Below are positions 13,621 to 50,693 of a stretch of 53,560 bases of DNA, one piece after another (the first letter of the stretch is position 1; each line of letters begins with the position of its first letter). The DNA is taken from NCBI GenBank assembly GCA_030599585.1, contig JAUVNS010000023.1, positions 1 through 53,560 of the forward strand, given 5' to 3'. The translations under genes were made by a program, and so were the position numbers. A model generated the notes under the pieces. It searched no databases, was not told where the DNA came from, and saw only the letters and a list, made by a program, of their open reading frames with translations. Source of the stretch: Promethearchaeota archaeon (GTDB lineage: Archaea > Asgardarchaeota > Lokiarchaeia > Sigyniarchaeales > SOKP01).

Positions 13621-14505
13621 CTATAAAACCATTTTAAGTTGCCTAGCTATTTCCTTGCGAAATATGGGATTACCGGTGAGCCGTTTAGAGAAAAAATTTG
13701 CTAACTCTTCGTATAAACTTTCCCTATCGCGTGAGAGAAATTCGATTTTTAGGTTGCTAACGATTAAATAAAGAAAAACATTTACGAACACTTCCCGCGC
13801 TAATTCCAAGTGAGATGGCAATATGTCGTCCATACTATGGTGGAATTTGTTGCGAATAGCGATGTATTTAATTACTAACGTCTCGATTTCTTCCGGAAAA
13901 CCGAGCTTTACTATCTTATTTGCCATAATTTCTTTTCCTTCGCTACTATTTTTTTCGCTTTCGCCAAACCGTTCCTTGTAAAGCGCTTCTAGTTTAGGGT
14001 ATAACTTCACGAAAAACTTATAATCGTCGTAATAGCTCATTTTAATCCACTGTTCTGCGCCAATCTGGGTTAAGCACCGATCAATTTCTTCTTTAACTCC
14101 CTCAATTGTGTTTGGCTTTTTTTCTTCCTCCGAATTATCGTTGCTAAGTTTGGATACCAGATTGTTTACTCGTATCGCAACCGTCTCCAAAAGATCGTTT
14201 TTTTCTTTTATTTCATTTCTTAGTTGCAATTCTACTTCAGTAGGCGAGGGAAGGTTTTCTTTACTTAATTGACTTTGCCCCGAGGTCTGAGTCTTCTTTT
14301 TTACGAAGAGAGAGATAAAAAACGCTACTTCTTCGGTCATACGACTTCGGCATTGAAGGAGCAATTGTTTTAACTCTTTTGCGCTGGTTTTCCTTTCGGT
14401 AAAGTTTTTTATTGCGATTTTAAGCTCTTCTAACTCCTCGTCCTTGAAAATAATTTTTTCTAACATTTGTTCGAAATTCGCTAATTCTTGACTCTTTGCC
14501 ATCAT
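13621..14505 (-). CDS. Coiled-coil protein with C-terminal HEPN-like motif
   Basis: IRNKFHH (RxxxxH) in a helical domain. Start overlaps the upstream stop by 4 nt (ATGA). Confidence 0.5.
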   Translation of the reverse strand: MMAKSQELANFEQMLEKIIFKDEELEELKIAIKNFTERKTSAKELKQLLLQCRSRMTEEVAFFISLFVKKKTQTSGQSQLSKENLPSPTEVELQLRNEIKEKNDLLETVAIRVNNLVSKLSNDNSEEEKKPNTIEGVKEEIDRCLTQIGAEQWIKMSYYDDYKFFVKLYPKLEALYKERFGESEKNSSEGKEIMANKIVKLGFPEEIETLVIKYIAIRNKFHHSMDDILPSHLELAREVFVNVFLYLIVSNLKIEFLSRDRESLYEELANFFSKRLTGNPIFRKEIARQLKMVL

Positions 14506-17500
14506 ACTGCCCCCATATCGCCCTCAACGTATTGTCTGAAACCGTCAAAAATCGTAGAATACGTTTCAAATATATTTTTACAGGTTTCTGCTACCTTTAC
14601 CTGATCGGTTACCTCGACGCTATTAATTAACGACAAATATTTCCTCAAGTCTTCTCCTGTAAACGGAAACCCTTGAATATTTCCGAATTTACCTAAGAAC
14701 TCGTTGATATCTTCGGAAGTTACTGCGTAATTTACGCTGTAATATTCTTTGTAAACGCTATGTAAAAACTTAGGAAGTAGTCCCTTAGCAGTTTTTAACA
14801 CGTTCTCGTATTTTTTGTAGCTCATGTTTTTGTGCATGGTAAAAAATTCGTAATACAAGATATGTACAAAATGCTTGGCTAAAGCACTTTTTATCTTAAT
14901 CGGGTTTAATTGATCTGGAGCGGGAGCTTCTTCTAGTATAAGCGCAGCTTCAGATTCTAATTCCACCGGTTCATAGGTGATGATCGAGCTATCTCGCGAA
15001 TCGTAGTAATCTTTTAACACCCTCTGGTAATGGGGTCCGACCGCAAAAGAAGTTTGCATGGATTCCGAACCGCTCGCTCTTTTTGGGTGGCTTTCTATTA
15101 AATATTGTTTACTTACCATAATCTCAAACACGTTATTTACGATTTCTCTTTCCCGTTTTTTGTCATTCGTAATTTTTGCGATGTAGGGCTTCAACACTTC
15201 CCGGAGTTCTTCTTTTACTTTTTTTTTGTAAAGATTCCCCACGGTATCGACCGCCTGGATGTTGTTTAAAAATTTCACAATTCCTTCAATTAAATCGCTA
15301 TAGCCTGCAAAATCGCTTTCGAAAAGAGTTGTCTGAGCCCTTTTCATGATTCTTACTTTAGTTTTTTCTAAGTCGTAGCCTTGCGAGCCCATATATTTCA
15401 CGAGTTCTTCCCACGAAAGAGGTTTGGTTTCTTCCAATTCTTCGAAGTCTAACTCAACGGGGAACGATTGGTAAATGTCCTCTCGTTTCACCACCGCCTC
15501 GTTTTGTTTCATAGCTGCGATATACCTCGTTTGGTAGCCTTCGTTCCTCCGATTGCTGTAGTAGCCGACTCCGTGTAAGTTCTCTAAATTCATCTGACCG
15601 TTGAGCACCGCCACGTCTCTTTTATCCGAAGCCCGAAAGGTTACGATGTTGTCGAAGTAATTAAATACATTCGGGTGTAAATATCTTATCTGAGAGGCAG
15701 AACAGATGGTTCCAAACCCTTTTTCTACGAAAGGCGAGAGGAATTTGTCTATTTTTCCGTATTGTATTTTTTTATCCAAGAAAAATCCATCAAAGACCAC
15801 GTCTATATGTGGCAGCACGATAAATTTAGGCACGAAGAATTCTCCAGTTTTTAGATAGTGAATAAACTTCGAAAGGACCACGAACGCAAAGTAACATTGT
15901 TTGTCGTAATCTCTTAGCTCGGAAAAATCTATTATTACGGTTTTATCGTTGGCGATAAATTCGTGCGCTTGGGCGGCGTCTTGAGACTCGGGTTGCTGAT
16001 TCTGGATAAACGAGGATTCTTGGGGAGTAAATTCTTTAAAGAAAGAAAGCAAAGTTTCGGTAACCGAAGATTTCTCCCAGTCGCGTTGCGTGGTTAAGTC
16101 TAACACTAAGGTAGATACGTCGATGTCTGGGTTCCGGAGTATAGTGTTTTTAAAAGTCTCGATAGTCCGCTCGTCTTTTTTAAAGCACATCATGTAAGCG
16201 TCAAACATGTAGTCCAAATATCCAGGGTTGTGTTTATCGAAAGGTATTCCCGAACGGAGCGGGTTGATCGTTATTGTTTTTCCTAATTTGTGGTAAATAA
16301 ATTGATTCTCGTAGATGGTGCCTTGGAACATTCCAATAATCTTAGACCAATTACCCGTAAAATCGAACACTACGGATGAATGGCCTACCTTTACCAATTC
16401 TACTACGATCTTTTGGGCTAGAAGTTCTCGGCTAGAGTTCTCACCGTTAGTTAAAAATAAATTACGCGCTTGCTCGATCAAAAAGCCTGCTGGCACTTCT
16501 CTTTCTAAATATTCCGTGTTAATGGTGGAGCCAACAACAATATCGTTTTTAAGTTGTAAAGGCGTGTTGAATTCGGCGGCTAACCTGGTTTCAACTCCTT
16601 TTTTAAACTGGTTGGCGATCATGGTAAGAAAATTTAAGGTTTTCCCTTGATACAACAAATAGTTGAGGTGCGAGCCATTTCTTCTGAAGAACCTATTCTT
16701 AAGCACTTCGAGCTCAAAACACGATTCTAACAAGTTGCCTCTTAATTGTTTTAATTTAAAGTTCATAAAATTATTCCCGTAAGCCGCTTTTAACACGCCC
16801 ATTTGCTCTATTAACGTTCTTTCGATCTTATCTATAGTTTCGTAATCGAGAGACGGCGAGTTAGAAACCACCGAGGTAGAATAGGTAGTAATAACGCTCC
16901 ACATCCCCGCTCGGTCTCTCAACCAAGCGTCTCGCCCTTCTGGGTTGTTGCGGAAAGCCATGAGTAGAATTTTTTCTCGTTCGTTTAGGTAATCAAACCC
17001 CTCTTCGTCAAATTTCTTGAAGTTTAACGGTTTTAACTGAAACGAGACGGTAAAAGGCGTTCCTTCTTTGTTTAACGATTCGTAAAACTTAGCGGGATTG
17101 CAATACGGTGGTGGGTTGCAAAAATATACGTTTGCCATTTTAATTCCGCCGGTAGTTTTTCCTTTTACTTGGTAAAAAATGGTCTCAGGAGTTTTTCTCG
17201 ATTTAAAGAATTCAATTTCGGCAAACGGATCGAGGAGTCCAATATCTTTAGATTTAAACAAGGACCCCTTCATTACTTGAAAAAACAATTCTTGCCACCA
17301 AAAAAGTAAAATCGTAACGATTATGCCAAGGCTTATTAAAAAGCGATATCCTATAGGTAAGGCAAAAAACAATAAAGACACATCTAACGCTATCGTTATG
17401 CCAATCACATACGCCACCTTCAAGATCGAAGCGGTAAGTTTGGATTTTGTAGTTTTACACGTAATTTTTTTAGGATTGGACTCTAGTGGAACGTCTCGCT

Positions 17501-18335
17501 TCAATACGGTGCTCCTAAACGAGTCAATTAACGCTTGTTCGGTTAAAAGCGATATTTTAAAATGGTGAAAATTGGACGAAATCCCCGTTTTTAAAGCCGC
17601 TACGCTTTTCCGGAGCTGTCCTACCATCTCAGTCACCTTAGATTTCTTGATTTTCCCGGTCATTTTGTAATAAGTAGAAAACAAAATAACCGTCTCGAAG
17701 GTTGTATTTTTGTCGTTTCCTTTACTATCGATTATCTGAAGCGGTTTGTGAATAATCTGGAAGGTATAAGGGGTTCGATTGTTGTACATTCCTTTGATAA
17801 AAGTATGTAAAGACGGGTTCACGTTTTCAGCCATGACTTCGACTTTTAAAGTGCTCACGCCAGTGGTAACCAAATCAACGCGATTTGTATAATACAACAC
17901 GGACTTATAATACTCGGGCTTATCGTAATCTTTCTTGTCGTATTCAGTCTGCCAAAAAATCAAGTTTTGAAAAGGGTTAAACGCTCCAAGCTCTAACAGG
18001 TGGTGTAAACCAAAGAAGCTTTTTCTAAAGACCAACACGAAACTTATCCCGACTATAACGGTTGCGCCAATTGAGAGCACAAAATCCATCGTGGTTAAAA
18101 CTAACGAAGCAAAAAAAAGAAATTCGATTATTACTAACGAGATCGCTTTTTTGAGCGTGTCGGTTTTATCTATATCTTTATAAGAAGGAAAAGCGTTCCA
18201 GACGCTATAGTAAGGGTCCTCGTCGCCTTCTCTGTTGTCACCTTTACTGTTTTCGCTATTTTCTTTTCCTTTTCTATTCCAATTATTAGCTTCGTCAAAA
18301 AATTCTCCATACGATTTTACCATTTTTTTTTTCAC
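14502..18335 (-). CDS. Large membrane-anchored VirB4/HerA-like P-loop protein with degenerate Walker motifs
   Basis: Two transmembrane pairs, then RNLFLTNGENSSRE (Walker A position), VVFDFTGNW, FIVLPHID (Walker B position) and KGFGTICSASQ...NIVTFR, in the HerA/FtsK motif order. Confidence 0.65.
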   Translation of the reverse strand: MKKKMVKSYGEFFDEANNWNRKGKENSENSKGDNREGDEDPYYSVWNAFPSYKDIDKTDTLKKAISLVIIEFLFFASLVLTTMDFVLSIGATVIVGISFVLVFRKSFFGLHHLLELGAFNPFQNLIFWQTEYDKKDYDKPEYYKSVLYYTNRVDLVTTGVSTLKVEVMAENVNPSLHTFIKGMYNNRTPYTFQIIHKPLQIIDSKGNDKNTTFETVILFSTYYKMTGKIKKSKVTEMVGQLRKSVAALKTGISSNFHHFKISLLTEQALIDSFRSTVLKRDVPLESNPKKITCKTTKSKLTASILKVAYVIGITIALDVSLLFFALPIGYRFLISLGIIVTILLFWWQELFFQVMKGSLFKSKDIGLLDPFAEIEFFKSRKTPETIFYQVKGKTTGGIKMANVYFCNPPPYCNPAKFYESLNKEGTPFTVSFQLKPLNFKKFDEEGFDYLNEREKILLMAFRNNPEGRDAWLRDRAGMWSVITTYSTSVVSNSPSLDYETIDKIERTLIEQMGVLKAAYGNNFMNFKLKQLRGNLLESCFELEVLKNRFFRRNGSHLNYLLYQGKTLNFLTMIANQFKKGVETRLAAEFNTPLQLKNDIVVGSTINTEYLEREVPAGFLIEQARNLFLTNGENSSRELLAQKIVVELVKVGHSSVVFDFTGNWSKIIGMFQGTIYENQFIYHKLGKTITINPLRSGIPFDKHNPGYLDYMFDAYMMCFKKDERTIETFKNTILRNPDIDVSTLVLDLTTQRDWEKSSVTETLLSFFKEFTPQESSFIQNQQPESQDAAQAHEFIANDKTVIIDFSELRDYDKQCYFAFVVLSKFIHYLKTGEFFVPKFIVLPHIDVVFDGFFLDKKIQYGKIDKFLSPFVEKGFGTICSASQIRYLHPNVFNYFDNIVTFRASDKRDVAVLNGQMNLENLHGVGYYSNRRNEGYQTRYIAAMKQNEAVVKREDIYQSFPVELDFEELEETKPLSWEELVKYMGSQGYDLEKTKVRIMKRAQTTLFESDFAGYSDLIEGIVKFLNNIQAVDTVGNLYKKKVKEELREVLKPYIAKITNDKKREREIVNNVFEIMVSKQYLIESHPKRASGSESMQTSFAVGPHYQRVLKDYYDSRDSSIITYEPVELESEAALILEEAPAPDQLNPIKIKSALAKHFVHILYYEFFTMHKNMSYKKYENVLKTAKGLLPKFLHSVYKEYYSVNYAVTSEDINEFLGKFGNIQGFPFTGEDLRKYLSLINSVEVTDQVKVAETCKNIFETYSTIFDGFRQYVEGDMGAV

Positions 18336-19186
18336 CTTTTTCCATAATATAATTTGTTAATAAATACAAAAATTACCATAACTCCTACGCAAATAAGAGT
18401 CGAATTACTTACTGTCGTTGATAACACACCGTACATGAACGATTCCACCAAAAGAATCGCTCCTAACATGCCAAATAAAATAATTAAGCCGAAAATTGCG
18501 AGCTGTCCCGCGTTTTCTTTTGAAGTTCGATACGAAATGTTGTCTTTTAGCGATCCTGAAACTGTAATTCTTCCCCTCGACTTCTGCTCTAGCTTTTTTT
18601 TGATTGTTTTCAGGTGTAAAATCTTTTCAAACGCGTTTTTATCGAATTGATTTTCGAGTTGTATCTGGAGGGCTTTCTCCTCGTATTTAAACCGTTGCAT
18701 TAATATCGGGCTAAACATATTGTCGCCTTTTCTCTTTCTATAGCGCCCACCCGAAAGAAAAGAAAACATAGATATGTTCCGGTTTGAATTAAAAGCGTCT
18801 GCGTTTATCTTCTCGTGTAAATTAGGAATTTCTAATTTCCGGAGCTCGTAATACGTCTCAATTACGGTTTTTACTTGTCCGAGGTTAATATTTCCTTTCC
18901 GTTTTAAAAATAAAAGTTCTATCTGAGAAAGTTTTTCTATCCATTCGAGCTTGAACACGATTATATCGAAGTTAAGCGCAAATATGTTGTTTACAAGTTT
19001 CATGTATTCAAAAATATTCTCCCCCGCTTCTTTATTTCTCGACCGTAACCCTAACTTGATTCCGATCTCGTCCACAGCGTTGCTTACGAACACGAAACTA
19101 ACTACTGCCAGCTTTTTGTAATTACCCGAATCCTTGCATAGTTGGATCAGCCGTCTTAACTTTAAATCTAACACTTGTTCGCTCAT
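18332..19186 (-). CDS. Membrane protein (helical N-domain + 2 C-terminal TM helices)
   Basis: C-terminal hydrophobic segments. 4-nt overlaps with both neighbours. Confidence 0.7.
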   Translation of the reverse strand: MSEQVLDLKLRRLIQLCKDSGNYKKLAVVSFVFVSNAVDEIGIKLGLRSRNKEAGENIFEYMKLVNNIFALNFDIIVFKLEWIEKLSQIELLFLKRKGNINLGQVKTVIETYYELRKLEIPNLHEKINADAFNSNRNISMFSFLSGGRYRKRKGDNMFSPILMQRFKYEEKALQIQLENQFDKNAFEKILHLKTIKKKLEQKSRGRITVSGSLKDNISYRTSKENAGQLAIFGLIILFGMLGAILLVESFMYGVLSTTVSNSTLICVGVMVIFVFINKLYYGKR

Positions 19187-19933
19187 TTTTTACCCCTCGT
19201 TTCCAAGAAATCTTCGTATATCAGCTCTACTTCGTTTTTAACGCCTTTTTTGCGCTTGACTCGAGAAGATTCGAGTTCTAATTCTTCTTGGGCTATTAAA
19301 TTGTCTAAATCGAACGGTTCCTTTGCGTTTGCAATGTACGCCTTTACCATCTTTTCGGGAGTTGATTGCTCCTTTTCGAAAGTGCTTACTACCGAATGGT
19401 TAAACAACGTATACGGAAAAGTACACCCGAAAGAAATTACTTGAAGCCAATATCCAGGACCAAGGGAGTAATACAAAGTAAGTTCTAATTCGTAATCGTA
19501 ATAGACCATAAAAGGATAATATAAGTCGTTTGGCAATAGAAAAAACAACGGGAACACCAAGACAAAAAAAACCAACCAACGTCACCAACGAGAGAGTAAT
19601 AAAGCCAAACCTTTTAACTTTTACCAAGTCATCTCCTTTTTCTACGTCGTGAAAAAGTGTTGAATAGGCAGAAAGGAAAATTATTATTACAAGAATTATC
19701 GCGATGACAACGGGCATAGTAGCGTTCTGAGGTTGGTAATGGCTATTAAACGCGTTTGCTTCCGTAAACGGAGTGCTCCACCCGAACAGAACGTTGTAAA
19801 CCCACGAGGTGATGGTCGCTCCGCTATCGAGTACTCCTTGAAAGTAATACCAATCCAAAAAAACGGAGGCAAAACTAAAGATAAGGCCAACTAAAAAAAT
19901 TATTTTATATCCTGATTTTATATTTATCGACAT
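19183..19933 (-). CDS. Multi-pass membrane protein split by a +1 frameshift in a T8 run (about 249 aa if corrected)
   Basis: Removing one T from GGTTTTTTTTGTC (A8 at 19564-19571) joins ...LVTLVG-FFVLVFPLFFLLP... into a continuous TM helix. Confidence 0.7.
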
Positions 19934-19983: not shown

Positions 19984-20000
19984 TTTATAAAGAAAAAAAA
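19984..20000 (-). promoter_or_regulatory. Pyrimidine-BRE class promoter of the 4-gene membrane/ATPase operon
   Basis: Minus strand TTTTTTTTCTTTATAAA in a divergent region. Confidence 0.6.
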
Positions 20001-21402: not shown

Positions 21403-23208
21403 TTAGTCTTCCAAAAACGAGGAGTATTTACCGCCGTATTTAGTTGGCGAAGGAGTAGCAATTTGAGTTTCTACTTGCTCAGTCTCGAACAAACTTTTTA
21501 ATTTGGGCTCGCTTCGCTTCGCGTCAATGTTATTTTTTAAAGATTTAGCTTCGACTCGTTCAATTACTCCATAGGACGCTTCTTTTCCTAAACATTCGTA
21601 TCCAAACTGAGTTATCAATTCGTCCGTCAGCTCTTCCTTAAGATCGAGTAAGTCGATCTCGCTAAATTCCAAAGTTTGTTGGTAGTAAGGAGTTTTAAAT
21701 TGAACTTTGAATTCTTTTTTAGTCTTGTACGCTTTAAAATACAAGAACGCGAGCAAAGAGAGGTAAATCCCTAAGACAGCGAACCCAATCGTGTTAAACA
21801 ACCGTAATAAGAAATATATTTTTGCAAAATAGAGAACTAAAAGCGCTACTGAATATCCGAAAATAGGAATTGAGATGTATCTTACGCGAGAACTAAGTTC
21901 GACTTCTGATTTCCGATAATCTTTTATTGAGCTCGTTTTTTTCGTTCTTTTTTCTATCATTTTATATTTCTTCTCTAAAAACTTGACCAAAGGGGGTAAA
22001 TCGGAGCGAACTACGGCGTGGAGGTTCGAGGTTCTTTGATACGGAAAGACCAGCGATTTTTCCATGCTTTTAGGCGGAGCGTTGCAAACTAAGATAGGTT
22101 CGATAACGACTTTGTATTGCGTGGTTCCAGAAAGAAACACCAAATTTTTGTTTCCGAGGTTTTTTTCCGAGCGTAAATCTAGTTGTAAGTATTTTTGGAA
22201 GAACTGAAGGATAGAGGTTCCATTCAGGACGTTTTCTTGCATCTTATCTCTGATTTGTAACAAATTCTGAGTAATTAATTTTACATCGTTGTGAACTCCA
22301 GAAACTCTGTTGTTCGGATAAGCTTTCGATTCTATTTTGGTTTCGCCAACCAATACCGTTCCTTTTGCGTCGAACCGCTTCACAGGGAACAAAAACAGAA
22401 TTATAAGGTTATCTGAAGCTTCCACCAACCTACACCCGAGATAGTCGAGGTTCTTAGTAAATTGGTTTAACGATTCTAAAGAGCTTGGGATTTCGTAGCA
22501 CCCAACATCCTTAAATGTGTCGCTAACGATATTTTCGAAAGTACTATCTCTAAAACTTTCAAAATTTACATTCTTTTGTTCCGCTAGGTTAGATTCTATA
22601 GGCTCTTCTTCTGTTGAGCTTTTCGATTCCGGTTGATTTTGTTGTATTTGTATTTCAGGAATAATTTCTTGTGAATACTTTTCTTCTTCGTATTCGTTTT
22701 CCTGTTCTATCTCTGGTTGAGTATCAAATTCAATACTGTTCGCTAATTGAATTGTTTTTGGTTCAATACTAATAACTTTTTCTTCTTCCTCAAAAGCTTC
22801 AGTTTGGGATTGATAAAACGCTTCTTCTAGTTCAGGTATGGTGTCCTCGTTAATTTCTTCGGGCACATCTACGATTACTTCTTCAACTTCGTATTTTTCA
22901 ATAGAATCTGGTACGGAGTTTTTTTTCATTGCGTCAGGAATTTGAGTAGTCTCGCTTACATCGCTTTCTTTTTGAGAACTCTCCAAGTAATTTTTAGCCG
23001 CAGTAATGAATTTTGTGGCGGTAGCTAAGCCAATTCCTGGAGTTTCCGAAAGTCGTTCAGGAGTCATCTCGGCAATTTGTCTTACAGATACAATTTTAGC
23101 GTTATACAATTTCTCGGCGGTTGTCGTCCCGATTCCTTTGATCTTGGTTAGATCCGCTCTGGAAAGTTCAACAACTACACTTTCTTGGGTTCCATATACA
23201 TCTGTCAT
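21403..23208 (-). CDS. Helix-hairpin-helix DNA-binding protein with acidic linker and 2 TM helices
   Basis: LTKIKGIGTTTAEKL...LSETPGIGLATATKF (tandem HhH, RadA-NTD-like), a Glu-rich linker, and a TM pair near the C-terminus. Confidence 0.75.
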   Translation of the reverse strand: MTDVYGTQESVVVELSRADLTKIKGIGTTTAEKLYNAKIVSVRQIAEMTPERLSETPGIGLATATKFITAAKNYLESSQKESDVSETTQIPDAMKKNSVPDSIEKYEVEEVIVDVPEEINEDTIPELEEAFYQSQTEAFEEEEKVISIEPKTIQLANSIEFDTQPEIEQENEYEEEKYSQEIIPEIQIQQNQPESKSSTEEEPIESNLAEQKNVNFESFRDSTFENIVSDTFKDVGCYEIPSSLESLNQFTKNLDYLGCRLVEASDNLIILFLFPVKRFDAKGTVLVGETKIESKAYPNNRVSGVHNDVKLITQNLLQIRDKMQENVLNGTSILQFFQKYLQLDLRSEKNLGNKNLVFLSGTTQYKVVIEPILVCNAPPKSMEKSLVFPYQRTSNLHAVVRSDLPPLVKFLEKKYKMIEKRTKKTSSIKDYRKSEVELSSRVRYISIPIFGYSVALLVLYFAKIYFLLRLFNTIGFAVLGIYLSLLAFLYFKAYKTKKEFKVQFKTPYYQQTLEFSEIDLLDLKEELTDELITQFGYECLGKEASYGVIERVEAKSLKNNIDAKRSEPKLKSLFETEQVETQIATPSPTKYGGKYSSFLED

Positions 23209-32443: not shown

Positions 32444-32444
32444 T

Positions 32445-33598: not shown

Positions 33599-33665
33599 AG
33601 CGGGTATTTTCTTTTATATACTTCTACCAATTATTCGCAGCAAAAATCAATAAAAAGCGATAATA

Positions 33666-34312: not shown

Positions 34313-34330
34313 TAATTATATATATATAAA

Positions 34331-34378
34331 AAATCATCGAAGCTATAAACTATTGATGATTTCAAATAGTTTTTTTTA
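34331..34378 (+). terminator. Hairpin + oligo-T terminator
   Basis: AAATCATCGA...TTGATGATTT inverted repeat followed by T8. Confidence 0.45.
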
Positions 34379-34507
34379 TTTTTTCATATCTTACCCCAAA
34401 GCATAACTATTATGAGACAAGAATTTTGCGACTAATTTTCCGATTCTTTCTCCTACATACATTAAATCTAAAAAAATACTTAAACAAAAACATTTTATTC
34501 TAATATT

Positions 34508-36164: not shown

Positions 36165-36167
36165 AAT

Positions 36168-38363: not shown

Positions 38364-38369
38364 ATCCTC

Positions 38370-38945
38370 TCAAACGATTTGTATTAAGTAGTCTTCTATT
38401 TCTAATTTCGATAAAGTTTTTTTGCTTCGTTTGTATGACTGAATGAGCTTACCCGCCTCAACTGCTAATTTCGAAGGGTAAATCAGACCGTTCCCTCTAC
38501 GTTCGAACAAACAAGGGAGCGCTCGGTTAAGCTGTTTGACTTTCTTTGAAAGTTCCGTTCCATTCCTTTTCGCGTCAAATCCCTTACCAATCTTTACGTG
38601 GTGAAAATAATATACTATGTCGTTTAATAGATCGGCTTGTTCTTTATCGATTTCGATTTCTTTTAGCTCCAAAGCGTCAAAATTTTTAACTTCTATTTTA
38701 GGCTTTAAAGTGAGATACGAGTTTCCATTTTTCCACTTCTTTACGAGAACATATCCTTCAAACATCGAGCTAAATAGCTTTTGAAACCGAAACACCAGCT
38801 CTAACACCTCTTCCAAGTCTCGTTCGGATACGTTGAGGTAGGTAGCTAGCTTTTTGAGGCTAAAAAGACTATTCTTTCTAGTCTGAAATTGTTCTAACGC
38901 CGAAATAATTTTTTGTAATTGATTGATTTTATCGCTTTGAGCCAT
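38370..38945 (-). CDS. HTH/winged-helix-like protein, first gene of the hef operon
   Basis: FSLKKLATYLNVSERDLEEVL HTH-like segment. Confidence 0.6.
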   Translation of the reverse strand: MAQSDKINQLQKIISALEQFQTRKNSLFSLKKLATYLNVSERDLEEVLELVFRFQKLFSSMFEGYVLVKKWKNGNSYLTLKPKIEVKNFDALELKEIEIDKEQADLLNDIVYYFHHVKIGKGFDAKRNGTELSKKVKQLNRALPCLFERRGNGLIYPSKLAVEAGKLIQSYKRSKKTLSKLEIEDYLIQIV

Positions 38946-40858: not shown

Positions 40859-43834
40859 TTATTTTGGAGTTCGCTTATTTTTGAACAGTTTAGTTATTAT
40901 TTTAATCCGAACCACTTTAGAAGTGCTAGATAAAGATATCGAAATCGCTCCTATCATCCCTATCGCTAATGGAATGGTTATTACGGCGTCTGCTTGGTAA
41001 AGATCGGTAGGATCGTTCTCAAGGTCAGGATCGGGATCGGGGTCGGGATTGGAATTAGGATCGATATAATCGAAGGTTGCGTTGCAGACGAACTGGGAGT
41101 CCCCTAAGTAAGGATCGTTAAGAAAAAATTCGAAATAATAGTTTCCGTAATAGTTTGGCGAGTAATCGAAGGTAAACGTCGAACTCTCTAAGGAATGAGA
41201 TAATGATAAGTCTATTACGTCGACATAACCCCCGTCACGATACACGTTGGCATACATCAAGCCATCGAAGATCGGTTCGTCTCCTGAAATAAAAGCGTGG
41301 CGTCCATAAATATTGGCTTGGATACGAGATTCGGTCTTTACGATCGAATACGAGAAAAAAGAATCAAATTCGGTAGTAAAAGAGAACGGAACGCTCGCTT
41401 TTTTTATGGCTCCGTCGTACACGCACAACTCCCCAGCCACAATTGGATAATTACCGGTATCAATAGACACATATACCATTTTCTGGTAAGTATAGTTGCT
41501 TAATTGGTCCAGTAATATTGTTCCTAATTGTGTGGACTCTATTTTAACCGTGGTATATTGTCCAAAATCAGAAAGTATGAGGTTCACCAATTCGACCGAG
41601 AACAAATTGTTGCTTCCTAAACCAATAGTATCGTAATAAGAAGTGCTCAATCTCAAGTTGTCAGTCTTTGCTATTTCGCATAACCACGTAAATACGTCAT
41701 GCTCCAACTCCCTTCTATCAATGGTGAGATAAAATTCGTTGTATATATCAGAATATATGTTTTGAACCAGTAAGTGCGTTTGCTCAACGTCGAATTGAAT
41801 ACCTAAGGCCAACGATTCCGAAATTTTATAGCTGTAATAAAGATTTTTTACATTTGAATAGTTCAGGTGATTTATTATGAAATTACTAATTTTATTTGAG
41901 TTCAGGTTGTATTGTTCGGTCAAGTTTAAAACAAATATCGCGTAATATAAGTTTTCTAATATCAATTCTACGCTATCGGAGTATTTAGCGTCAAAATATA
42001 ACTCGGTCGGAGTCTCCACGAGGTTCCTAGTAATGTAAGTCCCAAGCGCGGTTTTATCGAATCCTAGATCGGCGAAATACTGGCTATTTATGTTTCCTAG
42101 TCCCAGATATTGACTAATAAGTTCCATCGTTTGTATGGCATAATAAGAGTTTTTCAAGTAGACTAGATCGTTTTTCCACTCGGAAGAAGAGTTAATATTA
42201 ATATTAATTAAGAACCCTCCAAAGTTATCGATGTAGCTCAGATCGAGGAATTGCGAGGTGATCACGTCCTGTAAAACTGTATGTAGATCGTAGAGAGAGG
42301 CAAAGTCGTTTAATTTAAAAATTTTCCTTAAGGAGTCGAGAGATTTGAAAATATTTTGGTGAGAACTTATCAAATTGATCTCGTCTACGAATTCGTGATG
42401 TCCAGCAGTATCGTAGTCGAACGGTTTCGAGCGAAAACTCGCCTTCTCCAAATTCATACCGGTACACGCGAAAAAATCGTAATTACCACCACGATCTACA
42501 ACAGTGTCTACGAGTAAGTCGTATATAGATTGAATGTCAAGCTCTCCAATTTTGCCGAAGTATTCGTAAGACGATACTAGGTTATAGAGCAGGTCTATAG
42601 ATGTGTAATCCTCTGAAAGCAAAGAATATCCGCGCTCTTGAACAAACAAAGAAATAAACGAAGAGATATCGTTTCTATCCCCTAGCGAGAACCCTGAAAC
42701 ATCTCCTGTTTCCGAAAGCGATCGTACAATTTGGAAGGTGTCGATAAGTTCGTGATAACTCACCGAAGTCGAAGCTTCCCAACCCCCGCGATAATTTCGA
42801 TTGTTAACTATAAAGGCTAAGGCGTCGCTTCTCACAAAAGAAGTAAAACCCGTAATATCTGCTAGTTCTAAATTGATCGCAGTAGAAACGATGTTAGAAT
42901 AGTTAGCCGCCCACATTGAATCTGATACGTCAAAGTATGCTCCTTCGGAATGGTATAGCGCTGTAAGGTGCTGGTGAAACTTGGTAATATCAATAACATC
43001 AACGTAGCTACTTCCAAAGGTTTCTAACGTTTTCACGCAATAATAGGAAGCAAATTGGTTTGGCTCTGGCTCCATTAACGAGTCGAACATGCTTTCGTAA
43101 TCGTTATAAAAGCCAGTAGAAGAGCCTAACGATTGTAAACCGTCAATGTAAGACGTTATATCGCTCCTTTCTTGGGAATGTGCGTTCCAATCAACGCCTA
43201 AAGTATCTAAAGTAAGAACGGCGTAGTAGGTGTTGTCTGCGGTAGGGATTTTAAATCCTTCTTCTAACGAGCTATCGTAAGACTGTCCTATAAATCCATA
43301 CAAATATGGGTGATAACTATCCCAAATAAAATCGATCATGTCCGCAATATTTATCGAATTAACGGCATTCAAAATGTTCAAGGAAAGTACGGCGTAGCAA
43401 TTGACTTGTAAAAGCGTAGACAAAGGGTAATACCTGCCAGGTATTTTTGAAGCTAAGTATCTATCAGAATTTTTGTCCGAAAATATGTGGGAACTGGAGT
43501 TGTAAAACGATAAAACGTAGTTAATTACCGCTTGTTGGTCGATATCCCCTAACTTTCCGATAGCGTCTAAGACGTAGATCGCGTAATAAGTCGCTTGAAG
43601 AGAGTCCGAATAAATCTGAGGGTAATAGCCGTATGTTGCGTAATCGGCGTTTTTTGCGTCAAAAACTGATTGCAAAGTCTCGAGGTTCGAGGCATCAGAG
43701 GTGGCCAACAAGTCAAAATTTTCGTTTTGTGTTTCACTTGGATTTGCGAAAGTTCTTACGCCAATTGTTGAAACACAAGCTAAAACTACAATTAACACAA
43801 TGCTAACTAAAACTAGATGTTTTTTCCATTTCAT
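40859..43834 (-). CDS. Secreted, membrane-anchored prenyltransferase/squalene-oxidase-repeat (alpha/alpha barrel) surface protein
   Basis: Signal peptide, repeated TYYAxxxLxxL / GGF motifs, DPNSNPDPDPDPD linker, C-terminal TM and basic tail. Confidence 0.75.
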   Translation of the reverse strand: MKWKKHLVLVSIVLIVVLACVSTIGVRTFANPSETQNENFDLLATSDASNLETLQSVFDAKNADYATYGYYPQIYSDSLQATYYAIYVLDAIGKLGDIDQQAVINYVLSFYNSSSHIFSDKNSDRYLASKIPGRYYPLSTLLQVNCYAVLSLNILNAVNSINIADMIDFIWDSYHPYLYGFIGQSYDSSLEEGFKIPTADNTYYAVLTLDTLGVDWNAHSQERSDITSYIDGLQSLGSSTGFYNDYESMFDSLMEPEPNQFASYYCVKTLETFGSSYVDVIDITKFHQHLTALYHSEGAYFDVSDSMWAANYSNIVSTAINLELADITGFTSFVRSDALAFIVNNRNYRGGWEASTSVSYHELIDTFQIVRSLSETGDVSGFSLGDRNDISSFISLFVQERGYSLLSEDYTSIDLLYNLVSSYEYFGKIGELDIQSIYDLLVDTVVDRGGNYDFFACTGMNLEKASFRSKPFDYDTAGHHEFVDEINLISSHQNIFKSLDSLRKIFKLNDFASLYDLHTVLQDVITSQFLDLSYIDNFGGFLINININSSSEWKNDLVYLKNSYYAIQTMELISQYLGLGNINSQYFADLGFDKTALGTYITRNLVETPTELYFDAKYSDSVELILENLYYAIFVLNLTEQYNLNSNKISNFIINHLNYSNVKNLYYSYKISESLALGIQFDVEQTHLLVQNIYSDIYNEFYLTIDRRELEHDVFTWLCEIAKTDNLRLSTSYYDTIGLGSNNLFSVELVNLILSDFGQYTTVKIESTQLGTILLDQLSNYTYQKMVYVSIDTGNYPIVAGELCVYDGAIKKASVPFSFTTEFDSFFSYSIVKTESRIQANIYGRHAFISGDEPIFDGLMYANVYRDGGYVDVIDLSLSHSLESSTFTFDYSPNYYGNYYFEFFLNDPYLGDSQFVCNATFDYIDPNSNPDPDPDPDLENDPTDLYQADAVITIPLAIGMIGAISISLSSTSKVVRIKIITKLFKNKRTPK

Positions 43835-44586: not shown

Positions 44587-45861
44587 TCAACAAACCGATG
44601 GTGGACCGGTTGGGTTGTGATATTTCCACAGTTCGACTTTCACGCCCTCCTCATCCATATTATCTTTTTTGTTAGATAAAGAAGCGTCTTGAAAGTTCGT
44701 TGAACTATCTTCTATTTCGTTATTTTGATTTTTGGCAACCGAGGCAACTAAATACCCGCTTGCGTCTTTTACAACGAAGTAATATTCCTCGCTCTCGTTT
44801 AAGTTGTTAAACACTTGACTTGCGTCCCCTAAGATTATCTGAACTATGTCGTCGCACTGTGCCTCGTCCTCTGAAATTTCACTAACGTCTATAAACGCAG
44901 GATCTAATACGCCTAATTTAATCATAACTCTTTTTAATAAACCAGCGGATTTTACGAGGCTTAGAAAACCCGGAACGTTAAGCCTTTGAATAACTTTTTT
45001 CTCGACTTGCCTGTGAATCGTTGACATTTTAACGCCTAAACGCTTGCAAATTGCGCTCACGCTCACTTCTTTCTTCTGGGAGCAGAGAAGCGTAATAGAA
45101 GTCACCAAGCCCACTACTACGTCGTCCTTAGTGTTTTTTATGACTTCGTAAAACCTGTCAAGTATCCGCTTCGATTGGTAGTAGAACGACATCCCCAGAT
45201 TGAAGTGTTCGCTGACCTCCAAAATTCTTTCTTTAATGTATTGCTTGCGATCTCGCTCTTGATACTCTGGCCAGATGCGAATAATCGAAAATTTAAAAGA
45301 GTTGAAATCGTTTTTTGAAACCTTGGACACCCCCAAAAGTTCTTTCTCGCTAATTGGTTTACCATTCTCTTTGTAGTACGCGTAAATAACGCAAGGGACT
45401 AACATTTCTGGACTTCTATATTTCGTTCCTTTGCCTAAATTAGCTCGAAATTGTTTAACTTTGCTAACAATTACCTCTACATCGCCTGAGGAGAAGCCTA
45501 ACGCGGTTAAAATTCGTTTTGCCTCCACTTTTATCGCAATATTAAATGTTTCTTCGGTAGGTCGGGAAGAGTCTATCTTGCTTAGACCTTCTAATTTCGC
45601 TGAATGTTGCATCCTTCTTCTTTCAGACCTAAATCCGATTTGTGTTTTTCCTAACACGGCGTATTGGACGATGTCTGCGTCGTACGGTCGGTGGTATTCT
45701 AATTTTTGTATTTCTAACACTATTCCACAAGCTCGACAAGTGTAACCTTCTTGAGTTTCTATTACGTCGGTAGAGCCACAGACATCGCATTGATACTGGG
45801 ACTCGAGACCTGAGATAATTTTTAACGATTTTATTTTATCAGCACTATGAGGTGTTGCCAT
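44587..45861 (-). CDS. tfb: Divergent transcription initiation factor IIB (TFB) paralog
   Basis: Zn ribbon CDVCGS...YTCRACGIVL, two cyclin-like repeats (YRSPEMLVPCVIY...PISEKEL; VSAICKRLGVKMSTI) and an acidic C-terminal extension. Confidence 0.8.
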   Translation of the reverse strand: MATPHSADKIKSLKIISGLESQYQCDVCGSTDVIETQEGYTCRACGIVLEIQKLEYHRPYDADIVQYAVLGKTQIGFRSERRRMQHSAKLEGLSKIDSSRPTEETFNIAIKVEAKRILTALGFSSGDVEVIVSKVKQFRANLGKGTKYRSPEMLVPCVIYAYYKENGKPISEKELLGVSKVSKNDFNSFKFSIIRIWPEYQERDRKQYIKERILEVSEHFNLGMSFYYQSKRILDRFYEVIKNTKDDVVVGLVTSITLLCSQKKEVSVSAICKRLGVKMSTIHRQVEKKVIQRLNVPGFLSLVKSAGLLKRVMIKLGVLDPAFIDVSEISEDEAQCDDIVQIILGDASQVFNNLNESEEYYFVVKDASGYLVASVAKNQNNEIEDSSTNFQDASLSNKKDNMDEEGVKVELWKYHNPTGPPSVC

Positions 45862-46571: not shown

Positions 46572-47336
46572 ATGATAATGTTATATTTTTGGTTTTTTGT
46601 GTTATTAGTTGCCTCCGGCGCAATTCGAGCCCTCTACGGGTTAGCACATACGCCCGGTTACAAGTTATTTTTTAACTTGATAGCTATAGTTGGGGTGTTC
46701 GTCCACGAAGTAGCGCACTATACGGTGTCGCTTATTGTAGGCGGGAACCCCGGTAAAATACGGGTGAAATATCGAAACGAGGATAAAACGAGGGTATCGC
46801 CTCACGGATCGGTCAGCAATCCGGAATTCAAAAGGCAATCGGTCCTGCAAGCGTTTAGTATCAGTTTTGCCCCTCTTTTGGTATCCACTTTACTATTTAT
46901 GTTTTGCTTAGACGTTGTCTTTCACATCCAAACCGATCTCTGGGTAAAAGTAGTGGCAATTATTTTTAGCGTGTCGTTAGTGTTTGGCTTAAAACCTTCG
47001 GGACAAGACGCGAAAGTAGTCGGCTACGCGTATCAAAACGATCCTCGTTATTCGGTGTATCAAATATTTCTCTTACTATTATCGGGAGTGTTAGTGTGGT
47101 TATTTGTAGATTTATATTTTATTGTTCTACCCTTCGAGGTAATGTATTACGTCGAATATGTACTGGTTTTAGTCGTGTTTTACTTCGGGCTAAAAGCTTT
47201 GTTTTGGTTAGCCGGTAGAATTATAGGGAGCGTAGCTAAAAAATTGGGAAAAGCTCAAGTGTCAAGCCCTAAATTCCTTACCCGAAGAAGAAGGTTTAAA
47301 TACATAAAAGATTCTAACGAAAGAGAGGTGCAATAA
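46572..47336 (+). CDS. Membrane zinc metalloprotease (M50/site-2-like)
   Basis: GVFVHEVAH (HExxH) in TM context, ISFAPL, PSGQD. Confidence 0.75.
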   Translation: MIMLYFWFFVLLVASGAIRALYGLAHTPGYKLFFNLIAIVGVFVHEVAHYTVSLIVGGNPGKIRVKYRNEDKTRVSPHGSVSNPEFKRQSVLQAFSISFAPLLVSTLLFMFCLDVVFHIQTDLWVKVVAIIFSVSLVFGLKPSGQDAKVVGYAYQNDPRYSVYQIFLLLLSGVLVWLFVDLYFIVLPFEVMYYVEYVLVLVVFYFGLKALFWLAGRIIGSVAKKLGKAQVSSPKFLTRRRRFKYIKDSNEREVQ

Positions 47337-47341
47337 TAAAT

Positions 47342-47686
47342 ATGAAAGGTTTTTGTTTAATCGCAATAATAATCGCTATGCTGATGTTTTACCAGAGAGA
47401 GCCCATCTACACGGTAATTATAGTCGGGATTGGTCTGGCGTTATACATCGTTTACAAGGCAAGAAAAGGCGGTAATGGAACGATCGGCTCTTTTTTTAGC
47501 GGCAATCAATCGCGTCAAGACAACAGGTTAGACGATTTAATTGCTCTGATGATGCTCCAACAACTCTCCTCGACCAATTCTCAGAGCATGGGCGCTTCTG
47601 AGCAAATTTCTGAACAATCTCGAAAGCGACGAGAAGCGATCGAAAAGACGCAAAAAGAAACATTAGACTTACTGAGCGGTGATTGA
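47342..47686 (+). CDS. Small membrane protein
   Basis: N-terminal TM hairpin. Stop overlaps the radB start. Confidence 0.65.
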   Translation: MKGFCLIAIIIAMLMFYQREPIYTVIIVGIGLALYIVYKARKGGNGTIGSFFSGNQSRQDNRLDDLIALMMLQQLSSTNSQSMGASEQISEQSRKRREAIEKTQKETLDLLSGD

Positions 47687-48393
47687 AACTGGATACCTTT
47701 GACATAGCTTCTTTACTAAATTTGTTAAAAGAACGTAGAATCGTTTCGATCTCGGGAGAATCGGGCACCGGAAAAACCACATTAGCCTTACAGTTGGTCG
47801 CTTCTGCGTTAACTCAAGAGGACGGGAGCAAGAACCAAGCTTTATGGGTCCAAGCCAGCGAACAATTTCCCAAAAAACGGCTTCAAGTACTTTTTAAAAA
47901 TTCTCATGATAGCTATAAAGCCCTCCTGAAAAGAATTTTTGTATATCCAGGAACGAATCCTTTTTTGGATTATCAAACCCAGTCGACTTTTTTTACAAAC
48001 TTGGTATCCGTGATTTTGCCGTTTAACACTAAATACATCGTAATTGATAACATATCCCACTATCTAAGGTTTGCTGCTTCGTGTTGCTCCGATGTAAAAC
48101 AAAAGATGGCGCTCTTAGACGATTTTTTTAGCTCGCAGCTATTTCCCCTTATAATGCGTTGTCTAAGGGAAGAGATCGTTCTCGTGTTAATACACGAAGT
48201 CTCTTTTGACCCTGCGCTAGGAAAAAATCAACCGTTTTTTAACAAACTCTACTCGAGGATCAACAGCGTAAACGTAAGCTTGTCGAAACCGTTCGGTTCT
48301 AAAATTAAATTGATGGAACTCGCCTCGCGGGACGAGATAATTTCGAAAGACGTAAGATACATGATTAAAAATAAAGGAATTTCTCTAGTTTAA
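47683..48393 (+). CDS. radB: RadB-like RecA-fold ATPase
   Basis: ISGESGTGKTTLALQ, WVQASEQFPKKRL, IVIDNIS. Lacks the RadA N-terminal domain. Confidence 0.7.
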   Translation: MKLDTFDIASLLNLLKERRIVSISGESGTGKTTLALQLVASALTQEDGSKNQALWVQASEQFPKKRLQVLFKNSHDSYKALLKRIFVYPGTNPFLDYQTQSTFFTNLVSVILPFNTKYIVIDNISHYLRFAASCCSDVKQKMALLDDFFSSQLFPLIMRCLREEIVLVLIHEVSFDPALGKNQPFFNKLYSRINSVNVSLSKPFGSKIKLMELASRDEIISKDVRYMIKNKGISLV

Positions 48394-48474: not shown

Positions 48475-48852
48475 ATGATCAAAGCGCCTGATTCTAAAAC
48501 TTCGCGAAGCATTAAATGTTCCATCTGTCGATCCGGGATTAAAGACCTCCGAACAATGTATCAATCAAGTTTAAAATTGGGAGTAATCTGTAAAGTTTGT
48601 CGGGAGCGATTCTCTGAAGAAGATATCGAGATGATCGTAAACCTTTTTTTTGCCTTTGGTGGATATTTCGGACAATTCGACAAATCCGACTTTTCCATGG
48701 ACGAAACAATCTTCGAATTTGCTGAAAAGTTAAGCGCAGGTAATTCTACTTTTCACGCCCAGAACGTGAAGATGTGGCACAAAATATTAACGCACGGCAT
48801 CGTCCCTAAAGAGTTTTTAGAAGAACTCTCTGTTATAGCGGAACAAGAGTAA
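48475..48852 (+). CDS. Zinc-binding hypothetical protein
   Basis: CSIC...CKVC. Confidence 0.7.
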   Translation: MIKAPDSKTSRSIKCSICRSGIKDLRTMYQSSLKLGVICKVCRERFSEEDIEMIVNLFFAFGGYFGQFDKSDFSMDETIFEFAEKLSAGNSTFHAQNVKMWHKILTHGIVPKEFLEELSVIAEQE

Positions 48853-49364: not shown

Positions 49365-49423
49365 AAACCGATGGTATACTGGTTTAATTCAAATTACACA
49401 TAAGAGATGATAGCAAAAAAATT

Positions 49424-50693
49424 ATGTCAGACTTAGACCAGGTAAAATCAATTAACGCTCGACAGATTAAACTGCTCCAAGAAAGCGGAATTAGCACGGC
49501 AGAAGCCCTTGCAATGTCTCCAAACAATATCGTTTCGGAAATCGACGGATTAGGCGATAAAACGGCGAAGAAATTAATTTGGAACGCAAGAAACGCCCTT
49601 GGAATGACGGAGTTCACAACTGCTGACGATATCGACGAGAACACCGAATACATAACCACCGGTTCTTCTGGACTAAACAAGATTTTAGGTGGCGGGTTCC
49701 AAACGGGAAAACTTACCGAGGTATACGGTCCTTTCAAAAGTGGAAAGACGAATTTGGCCCATACCATTGCGGTAACCATCCAACTTCCAAAGAAACAAGG
49801 AGGTTTGAGTTCGGCTGTAGCCTATATTGACACTGAAAACACGTTTGCTAAGGAAAAGATTAAAAGGATCGCAAAACGTTTCGGGCTCGATCCGAAAAAA
49901 GTTCTGTCCCAGATTTTTCACGCCAGAATTTATTCGTCAGACCATCAGATGCAAATGATTCAGAAGGCAGAGACGCTATGCAAAACTCGAAACGTGCGAT
50001 TAATCGTGGTAGACAGTTTAATGGCCCTAATGAGGGCAGAATACGTAGGAATTGGTATGTTAGCTCGTCGTCAAGGCGTTTTAAACAACATGATTCACGG
50101 TCTTTCTCGAATTGCAGAGACTTACAATTGCGGAATTCTTCTAACAAATCAAGTTTCGGTCAAGATGATGGGTATGTTCTCAGGAAACGACGCCATTGGG
50201 GGAAATAGTGATGTGACACTTCGTCAATCGCTTCTAAATCGTAGCCCATGGCTGCCACTTCCGTGTCATGTTTAAGACAAAAGGATTTTCGTCCAATAAC
50301 TCGCTAAAACGGAGAGCGGTAATAGTAGACGCCCCTGACTTACCACCAGAAGAAGCGGAGTTTTATATAACGGCTGTAGGCATTGCCGACACCGAGAAAG
50401 GAGAGGTTCCGGAAGCAAAAGGGTTGGACTTCGAAGTAGAAACGCTGTACGAAGAGGAGCAAGTTGTAGGGGAGGTATCTGTTGAAGAAAGTACCGGTTC
50501 AGGAGAGTATTCCTTAATAGACGTAAAAGGAATAGGAGCCGGAATGGCAAAGAACCTTATTAAAAACGGCGTTGCTTCGGTTGACGCCTTAATTGAATCC
50601 GATCCCGAACAACTTGCCTCCAAGATTAGTGGAATCTCCTCCAAAATGATAAATGATTGGCAAGCAAACGCCATTGCTCTTATAAACGCTTAA
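49424..50693 (+). CDS. radA: RadA/Rad51-family recombinase, join(49424..50206,50238..50693), 412 aa, with extra C-terminal HhH domain
   Basis: HhH N-domain, GPFKSGKT, YIDTENTF, LIVVDSL, LLTNQV. The spliced junction gives AIGGN-IVAHGCHFRVMFKTKG...RRAVIVDAPDLPPEEAEFYITAVGIAD. Confidence 0.92.
50207..50237 (+). other. 31-nt BHB-type (tRNA-endonuclease-type) intron in radA
   Basis: AGTGATGTGACACTTCGTCAATCGCTTCTAA. Central helix GGAA(50201-04):TTCT(50232-35), bulges AT|A(50205-07) and AA|A(50236-38), inner stems GTGAT:ATCGC and TGAC:GTCA. Removal restores the frame and the conserved motif. Confidence 0.88.

Follow-up and report, generated by a model that had tools for sequence, protein, structure and literature searches.

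A conserved, optional gene island in one family of Lokiarchaeia that may work as a regulon with its own TFB paralogue

The island and its closest described counterparts

In the Sulfolobales, the response to DNA damage, with the ups and ced genes among its targets, is activated by TFB3, which is induced by ultraviolet light and acts as an activator in experiments (PMC6101591, PMC6101594). The parts that make up the Ced and Ted systems resemble VirB4, VirB6 and VirB2 (PMC9905601). Here we describe a gene island of Asgard archaea found on contig JAUVNS010000023.1 (C49) of assembly GCA_030599585.1 (G000; Promethearchaeota archaeon). The entire contig of 53.6 kb was the window analysed, and coordinates without a contig prefix are positions on it; G-codes denote the genomes compared and C-codes the contigs within a genome. 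The region 13621-50693 encodes a RadA paralogue, a RadB-like ATPase, Hef-like and Hel308-family helicases, a membrane HhH protein, an operon with a HerA/VirB4-fold protein, a surface protein, an M50-like protein and a TFB. The island is real, conserved and optional in one family of Lokiarchaeia, and a literature search found no paper describing the gene cluster. We think it somewhat probable that this accessory island works as a regulon with its own TFB.

Like the TFB3/Ups/Ced programme of the Sulfolobales (PMC6101594, PMC6101591, PMC11823120), the island ties a TFB paralogue to membrane proteins, to a protein of VirB4/HerA type and to homologous recombination, and both are accessory and lineage-specific. 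Unlike that programme, the island TFB retains both cyclin folds as well as a zinc (Zn) ribbon and is extended at its C-terminus, no pilus genes were recognised in the island, its ATPase appears dead, its recombination enzymes lie inside the island, and it is known from its genes alone. With Ced, Ted and bacterial type IV secretion the island shares a VirB4 fold (4ag5, TM-score 0.64) encoded in an operon with small membrane proteins. It differs from them in that the VirB4-like protein lacks the Walker A and B motifs and has its domain fused to three transmembrane (TM) segments and two large N-terminal modules, and in that neither a polytopic channel like VirB6 or CedA nor a VirB2-like pilin was recognised. 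Since only the VirB4-like fold is present, and in a predicted inactive form, the island possibly works like Ced and Ted without being a member of either.

The G000 assembly comprises 4.85 Mb in 52 contigs, with a GC content of about 32% and a bin contamination of 8.9%. It holds three copies of the island, on C49, C12 and C20:239-272k. Families were assigned by Pfam and NCBIfam scans and by profile comparison (hhalign), fold comparison (Foldseek), PADLOC and PHROG, and TM segments were called by a hydropathy scan. The ratio of non-synonymous to synonymous substitution rates (dN/dS) was computed between C49 and C12 for 16 genes. All 16 genes gave values of 0.03-0.27, the gene of the dead ATPase included, indicating purifying selection. 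The conserved set amounts to about 18 genes in about ten transcription units.

An original prediction, made from the sequence of the window, had proposed a dedicated DNA-transfer and recombination programme of competence or mating type at 13621-50693. The genes that it listed were located where it had placed them by Pfam, NCBIfam, profile and fold comparison, the RadB and M50 calls being weak. Its boundaries did not hold, because the module runs on at both sides. To the right, the conserved block on homologous contigs goes beyond RadA with genes for a 344-aa protein, a Zn-ribbon protein, a FEN1/XPG-like nuclease, an RPA-like OB-fold protein and an Arf-like GTPase; this block is whole in G015 and G027 and partial in G011 and G016, where the available stretches end inside it. 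To the left, the island promoter type extends to ThiF and GNAT genes, which border the cluster likewise in G005, G011 and G015.

The divergent TFB and its promoter class

The TFB paralogue (44587..45861, minus strand) is a protein of 424 aa in which a Zn ribbon precedes two cyclin folds, the recognition helix is altered and about 135 aa are added at the C-terminus. An hhalign comparison of seven orthologues with eight canonical TFBs of G000 gave a probability of 96.5% and an E-value of 7e-10, with columns 19-288 aligned to 14-302. The predicted divergent TFB is thus genuine, its Zn ribbon and both cyclin folds aligning to canonical TFBs. Against PDB profiles, all seven matches were TFIIB (E 0.2-0.4). 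The island TFB escapes the Pfam model PF00382, which detects about ten others in the genome. In place of the canonical TEVT(L/I)R its recognition helix has KMSTIHRQV, and what follows its Zn ribbon bears no relation to the canonical consensus; neither the canonical helix that recognises the B recognition element (BRE) nor the canonical B-reader was seen in the island TFB.

The promoters of the island consist of a T-rich stretch ending in C, directly upstream of a TATA box. The membrane operon, the HhH gene, the Hel308 gene, the Hef unit, the surface-protein gene, the M50 operon, the Zn-ribbon gene and the RadA gene each have TTTTYCTTTAWAWA or a near variant 33-70 nt ahead of the start codon. 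Ahead of the membrane operon it takes the form TTTTCTTTATAAA (19984..19996, minus strand), and the same position is occupied in G011, G016 and G027. The remaining sites are at 23237-23249 (HhH), 25774-25786 (Hel308, one mismatch), upstream of 38945 (Hef unit, the variant TTTTTCCTTTTTAT), 43889-43901 (surface protein), 46532-46544 (M50 operon, one mismatch), 48441-48453 (Zn ribbon) and 49352-49364 (RadA). Exact island promoters also occur to the left of 13621, at 4365-4377, 7476-7488 and 9373-9385 on the minus strand and at 9476-9488 on the plus strand; they precede a DUF2695 open reading frame (ORF), two GNAT-like genes and ThiF.

With at most one mismatch allowed, the motif occurred 25 times in the window versus 10.3 +/- 3.2 times in shuffled sequences, and none of 100 shuffles reached 25. 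Exact TTTYCTTTAWAWA was found 125 times genome-wide (0.26 per 10 kb) versus 1.7 per 10 kb on C49; nine of these sites lie on C49, 19 on C12 and ten on C20:244-294k, so that the three island copies hold 38 of the 125. The bases upstream of TATA-like boxes before ORFs were 63-75% T followed by C in the island copies, and the profile was flat elsewhere in the genome. The motif precedes orthologous units in G011, G016 and G027 and was found again upstream of the same genes in G094, which belongs to another genus and has another gene order. The shared promoter motif that had been proposed therefore stands: it exceeds shuffles, is concentrated in the island and is conserved within the genus and in another genus.

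A second gene set with the same promoter type was observed in G000, at C9:324000-341000, C10:6298-8076 and C35:89622-91490. It encodes an XPD-like helicase, two mTERF-domain proteins, a radical-SAM/B12 protein and proteins of 484-619 aa related to the divergent TFB in its cyclin-like part; among these last, one bears several TFIIB-type Zn ribbons.

The operon divergent from the TFB gene (46572..48393, plus strand) encodes an M50-like protein (46572-47336), a small TM protein (47342-47686) and a RadB-like ATPase (47683-48393). The M50-like protein has the motif HEVAH at residues 45-49 and six TM segments, features that agree with the predicted intramembrane protease, but its score on PF13398 is sub-threshold (19.3 bits, cut-off 26) and the call is weak. 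The arrangement resembles bacterial switches of an extracytoplasmic function (ECF) sigma factor, an anti-sigma factor and a site-2 protease, in that a promoter-specificity factor is encoded divergently from an operon that holds the genes of an M50-type membrane protein and a small TM protein; with so weak an M50 match, the likeness is an analogy only. The third protein carries Walker A (GESGTGKT) and Walker B, as expected of a RadB-like P-loop ATPase, but scores 38.7 bits on TIGR02237 versus a cut-off of 172.4, so that it is not RadB proper.

Next to this operon lies the gene of a C4 Zn-ribbon protein of 125 aa from an unnamed family (48475..48852, plus strand). Members of the family, with conserved FFAFGGYFG and WHK.LTHGI.P, were seen back to back with TFB genes in three contexts: here, at C15:39898-40605 and near 551000 on contig C9 of G094. 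The C15 member is a tandem domain duplication.

The membrane operon, the DNA enzymes and the RadA insert

The membrane operon lies on the minus strand and is headed by the gene of a 4-TM protein (19183..19933). Two overlapping frames (19400-19933 and 19183-19575) cover this gene on C49, and on C12 and C20 it is a single frame of 249-250 aa; a frameshift, a sequencing error and recoding are possible causes of the split. The next gene (18332..19186) encodes a protein of 284 aa with two C-terminal TM segments (dN/dS 0.15), and its stop overlaps the start of the gene for a 1277-aa membrane protein (14502..18335; dN/dS 0.08). This third protein has three TM segments (85-103, 310-350) and a C-terminal HerA/VirB4-fold domain, as found with AlphaFold2 (AF2) and Foldseek. 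The last gene (13621..14505; dN/dS 0.27 versus C12) encodes a protein of 294 aa with one weak TM segment; it is syntenic in relatives and had no Pfam, NCBIfam, PADLOC or PHROG match.

Pfam and NCBIfam searches placed the C-terminal domain of the 1277-aa protein in no known family, and its profile matched no PDB sequence even at E 10. An AF2 model of residues 545-1277 (pLDDT 64) gave 125 PDB matches in Foldseek at E <= 0.001, led by HerA, VirB4, DndH-C and TrwB. The best was HerA 4d2i (E 5e-9), and VirB4 4ag5 and the DndH C-domain reached a TM-score on the target of 0.64. The neighbours of the protein in the ESM Atlas are DUF87/HerA_C clusters. The domain, as modelled, has a RecA-like core of HerA/VirB4 topology. 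At the Walker A and B positions the protein reads TNGENSSRE and LPHID, which match neither GxxxxGK[ST] nor hhhhDE, and these positions are degenerate in all eight orthologues aligned, down to 18% identity. Strong purifying selection on a gene that has lost its Walker motifs indicates a conserved pseudo-ATPase, and the protein is predicted from its motifs to be incapable of ATP hydrolysis. The VirB4/HerA-like membrane operon of the original prediction is thus upheld as to fold and as an operon of membrane proteins, but the Walker motifs are absent in every orthologue; likewise, the comparison with the VirB4 structure supports the fold, but with a model of pLDDT 64 and the motifs lost. An apparent in-frame TAA inside many homologues of the 1277-aa protein proved to be the stop codon immediately upstream of the true start.

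The HerA-NurA complex and the defence complexes on a HerA scaffold (4d2i, 9x1m, 8wod, 8sub) gave the best Foldseek E-values, 5e-9 to 1e-5, and resemble the island in being associated with recombination genes in the genome. HerA in these complexes is soluble and acts as a hexameric translocase paired with a nuclease or Sir2, whereas the island protein is membrane-anchored and predicted to be inactive and has no such partner. The small membrane proteins at 19183-19933 and 18332-19186 matched no known family in domain and PHROG scans; with VirB2, CedA1 and TedC they were compared by sequence only. The conserved operon proteins have 1-4 TM segments each, and no channel of 6-7 TM segments like VirB6 or CedA was recognised among them. 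The sole 7-TM ORF (20094-21377) has no counterpart on C12, on C20 or in relatives. Domain and TM scans of the window proteins recognised no pilin or pilus-assembly gene.

Upstream of the operon, the membrane HhH protein of the original prediction was recovered (21403..23208, minus strand; 601 aa, dN/dS 0.24), with an N-terminal HhH domain at residues 19-72 (PF14520, E 1e-11) and two TM segments at 444-482. The HhH domain is probably cytoplasmic, given its N-terminal position without a signal peptide. The predicted large surface protein was also borne out (40859..43834, minus strand; 991 aa). Between an N-terminal signal or anchor and a C-terminal TM anchor it carries helical repeats, beta domains and a DP-rich linker; its fold model was unusable (pLDDT 41), and the ESM Atlas gave no match above 0.76.

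The DNA enzymes of the island match archaeal RadA and RadB, Hef and Hel308 (Hjm) at the family level, with intact motor motifs. The Hel308-family helicase (25851..28382, plus strand; 843 aa, dN/dS 0.03) retains GSGKT, DEIH and QMLGRAGR. It scored 413 bits on NF002654 (cut-off 887), 325 bits on NF040935 (cut-off 1200) and 27.4 bits on PF21280. Unlike archaeal Hel308 it stays under half the equivalog cut-off, yet the three cluster copies are the best Hel308 matches of the genome (280 bits; next 124). The Hel308-like call of the original prediction agrees with these family-level matches, but this helicase is not a spare copy. The Hef unit (35637..38945, minus strand) is syntenic in relatives and has three genes, for a 191-aa protein (38370-38945), a Hef-like helicase (36168-38363) and a Zn-ribbon DUF1922-like protein (35637-36164). 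The helicase has intact GLGKT and DEAH motifs and the helical insert PF21210; its score of 569 bits, against a cut-off of 610, covers model positions 4-569 of 781. The Hef helicase part is thus present, but unlike the canonical Hef on C4 the protein lacks the ERCC4 nuclease domain, PF02732 matching in the genome only on C4 and C26, so that Hef/FANCM as predicted applies to the motor alone.

The RadA paralogue (49424..50693, plus strand, read as 49424-50206 and 50238-50693) has an HhH domain, an ATPase domain and, unlike archaeal RadA, a second, C-terminal HhH domain; without its insert it is 412-413 aa long. It scored 272 bits on NF003301 for the first part and 315 bits for the C20 copy, which is one intact frame of 413 aa (cut-off 259), and its Walker A and B motifs are intact (GPFKSGKT, LIVVDS). 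With a score above the cut-off, the N-terminal HhH domain and both Walker motifs, it was correctly called RadA in the original prediction. Canonical RadA genes lie on C24 (157968-158963) and C27 (3879-5150), with 449 and 448 bits; at 68% mutual identity they are true paralogues, and the cluster RadA is 41-43% identical to them. The C27 RadA is extended at its N-terminus by about 110 aa that include Cys pairs, and the C24 and C27 types both recur across the genus. A third RadA outside the island is on C15 (46438-47475). Canonical Hef with ERCC4 is on C4, and about ten canonical TFBs are scattered in the genome. Separate housekeeping copies thus exist for RadA, Hef and TFB, but not for Hel308, which has no better match outside the cluster.

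A frame-shifting insert of exactly 31 nt interrupts RadA between GGN and IVAH (50207..50237, plus strand). In predicted folds it forms a hairpin between short flanking helices. It is present on C49 and C12 and in G016, and absent from C20, G011, G015 and G027; a pattern search found it at six loci in four genomes, all of the same genus (twice each in G000 and G028, once in G016 and G020). The stem AGYGAY / RTCRCT shows compensatory changes, from U-A to C-G at two pairs. Both halves of RadA are under purifying selection, each in its own frame (dN/dS 0.04), indicating that the insert must be removed or bypassed, and it is a candidate intron of the bulge-helix-bulge type. RadA had been described as intron-gated, with splicing as a control layer of the whole module; this was not borne out in general, since only some lineages carry the insert and the C20 copy in this assembly lacks it. 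The insert is also missing from the closest relatives by canonical RadA (G002, G027), and its distribution departs from the species order. Rfam had no match on C49.

Five variable inserts interrupt the conserved genes. The largest (28389..35614, mixed strands) holds an HNH nuclease, an HSDR_N/DUF5655 protein and small ORFs and is mostly without counterpart on C12 and C20; only a few short pieces in it are conserved, a Zn-ribbon ORF at 31104 and 33270-33906. Its HNH endonuclease lies at 31806-32276, with a partial second copy upstream at 32462-32563. The other four are at 20094-21377, 23306-25360, 38991-40736 and 43973-44515. Between ThiF and the cluster, a leucine-rich-repeat protein gene and 12892-13554 form an insert that is missing from C12, and a 40-nt direct repeat (90% identical; 10443-10482 and 12824-12863) flanks the leucine-rich-repeat gene. 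Further left, a 300-nt direct repeat (81% identical; 1722-2021 and 5445-5744) lies inside two paralogous tetratricopeptide-repeat protein genes (1185-2126 and 4893-5846).

Copies, descent and competing explanations

Amino-acid identity between the three copies in G000 is 57-98%, and the C20 copy lies inside a contig of 411 kb. Along its full length of 92 kb, C12 has homology to a chain of other contigs and, with an inversion, to C20:234-294k. Exact overlaps of contig ends link C23, C51 and C49 (141 and 61 nt), and C52 overlaps both C6 and C16, indicating that the assembly breaks at branch points between island haplotypes. The first ORF of the window (1-1158, NOV_C domain) is cut at the contig end and resumes on C51. 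The three haplotypes are either paralogous islands in one genome or co-binned sister populations. Assemblies of related genera in 10 contigs hold two to four full-length TFB copies, some on one contig, which supports multiple copies.

Gene order is the same in G011, G015, G016, G027 and, for the first part before its contig ends, G005. In G094 (genus g22) the same set is rearranged, with the RadA paralogue beside a second TFB copy, so the linkage is conserved across relatives. In G055, of another family, a remote HerA-like gene adjoins Hef-like and Hel308-like genes. The 1277-aa gene was found in 28 of 36 genus genomes searched and Hel308 in 30 of 40; the divergent TFB was found in 75 of 102 family genomes, and in the other families searched only weak partial matches appeared, in one genome. 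Hel308 and the 1277-aa gene were not found in G029 (95% complete), G022 (92%), G010 and G030. In G017 a decayed copy (C17:129900-144600, in a 528-kb contig) keeps an N-terminal fragment of the HerA-like gene, a Hel308 gene with an internal deletion and a truncated surface-protein gene; Hef and RadA are missing, and the TFB, M50, RadB-like and Zn-ribbon genes are retained. Across about 30 genomes, the cluster Hel308 becomes less similar to that of G000 as canonical RadA does (identities 91/89, 85/78, 75/70 and 71/64; one outlier, G064), which fits vertical descent, and the island appears mostly to follow the species tree. A seeming division into type I and type II clusters reflected fast divergence of the membrane proteins along that tree.

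In the regulon that we favour, the TFB paralogue would read the altered T-rich/C element at the BRE position next to the TATA box and so activate every unit in concert. DNA would be held at the cytoplasmic face of the membrane by the membrane HhH protein and by the dead HerA/VirB4 ring with its four membrane partners, and the helicases, recombinases, FEN1-like flap nuclease and RPA-like single-stranded DNA-binding protein would make recombinants from it. The M50-like protease and its small TM neighbour may, as a matter of speculation, be the on-switch by intramembrane proteolysis. As to the DNA handled, we give roughly equal weight to DNA from another cell and to an internal, membrane-linked programme of repair and recombination. 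DNA exchange between cells is a reasonable role to propose for the island, and a link to meiosis is speculation. Several points weigh against the regulon as set out here. The HerA/VirB4 model is of medium confidence only, at its pLDDT of 64, and most of the membrane proteins fall into no family that could be recognised. Genes unrelated to DNA, such as those for ThiF, GNAT, radical SAM, MFS and histidine kinase proteins, have the promoter in front of them as well, and the whole-genome motif count, which is noisy, fails to separate island-bearing from island-free genomes. The island is dispensable, being decayed in G017 and not found in several fairly complete genomes, and its membrane genes and DNA enzymes could adjoin for historical reasons.

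A dedicated, mating-like apparatus for import or export of DNA between cells, coupled to recombination and analogous to Ced/Ups under TFB3, is a possibility that we hold to be doubtful. It would suit a central membrane protein of the VirB4/HerA/TrwB-type fold that has at least five membrane partners and is accompanied by a large protein anchored at the surface, by a membrane HhH protein, by a second set of recombination enzymes and by a TFB of the island's own, and the Sulfolobales offer a precedent (PMC9905601, PMC6101594). Against it, the ATPase motifs are lost in all orthologues, neither a conserved VirB6/CedA-like channel of 6-7 TM segments nor any pilin or gene for pilus assembly was recognised, the cytoplasm is the probable location of the HhH domain, and no sequence similarity was found to any Ced or Ted component or to a solved structure. 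The most far-reaching version is unlikely: a sigma-like TFB running, across the family, a programme of an envelope complex, uptake or handover of DNA between cells, dedicated recombination by RadA, RadB, Hel308, Hef, FEN1 and RPA and, in some lineages, removal of the 31-nt intron, as a forerunner of regulated sexual recombination. About as improbable is a resident or domesticated mobile element, an integrated plasmid- or virus-like one, whose TFB, promoters, recombination enzymes and envelope proteins serve its own maintenance, recombination-driven replication or transfer. Such an element would account for a copy number from none to several, including the three haplotypes of G000 and, in G094 (10 contigs), two TFB copies on one contig and a third on another; for the many TFB fragments with stop codons in several genomes; for the decay in G017 and the gaps in several genomes that are 92-95% complete; for a GC content 3-4 points above the genome average; for promoters that are the island's own; and for variable cargo that includes an HNH nuclease. 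The cluster Hel308, with G064 as outlier, nonetheless tracks canonical RadA, and the same flanking genes recur in several species. The genome's only two tyrosine recombinases (PF00589), on C31 and C32, lie outside the island copies; none of ten uncharacterised island proteins tested matched PHROG, IMG/VR held no relatives of the 1277-aa protein or the TFB, and neither direct or att-like repeats bounding the island nor a terminal repeat on the contig was found. The original prediction, which saw no integrase or capsid gene in the window, agrees with these searches, and C49 carries no tRNA gene. With the linkage conserved, canonical RadA, Hef and TFBs elsewhere and viral hallmarks absent, the genes are not sole, unlinked housekeeping copies and the contig does not read as a virus or plasmid. 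At the end of C32 (199000-213232), counterparts of genes from either end of C12 occur beside the tyrosine recombinase of that contig (210086-210580); this stretch is perhaps a further, integrase-bearing island fragment.

The absence of any regulon, with the motif a strong version of a general promoter and its clustering an accident of local duplication, is very unlikely. A TATA box makes up half of the motif, no ORF follows roughly half of the exact sites outside the island copies, and the genome-wide counts are noisy, but TATA-like boxes elsewhere lack the T-rich/C prefix, and the motif stands upstream of the same genes in three other species and another genus despite changes in gene order. 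Hardly probable at all is an anti-virus or anti-plasmid defence island with helicases and nucleases on a HerA-type scaffold. The top fold matches do include HerA of the Sir2-HerA and DUF4297-HerA complexes, the Hel308-like helicase matches HamB models over its motor domains, and the variable inserts hold HNH and restriction-like domains. That helicase scores far better on Hel308-type models (413 bits), however, and among the proteins tested PADLOC gave only helicase-motor matches and two weak P-loop matches of the RadB-like ATPase. The RadA, RPA-like, FEN1-like and TFB genes are not defence components, and no Sir2, NurA-like nuclease or HamA partner effector was found.

If the island were only a repair cluster or an old mobile element, it would still be a useful marker of accessory genome dynamics in the family. 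The RadA insert is a rare candidate for a protein-coding intron of the bulge-helix-bulge type under selection. If the TFB paralogue does read its own promoter class, the island would offer a clean, sequence-defined case of sigma-like promoter selection in the archaea most closely related to eukaryotes, with a regulon that could be read directly from genomes. The content of that regulon, a second recombination toolkit with a putatively dead VirB4/HerA membrane complex, makes regulated DNA exchange or recombination in Asgard archaea testable in cultured Lokiarchaeia.

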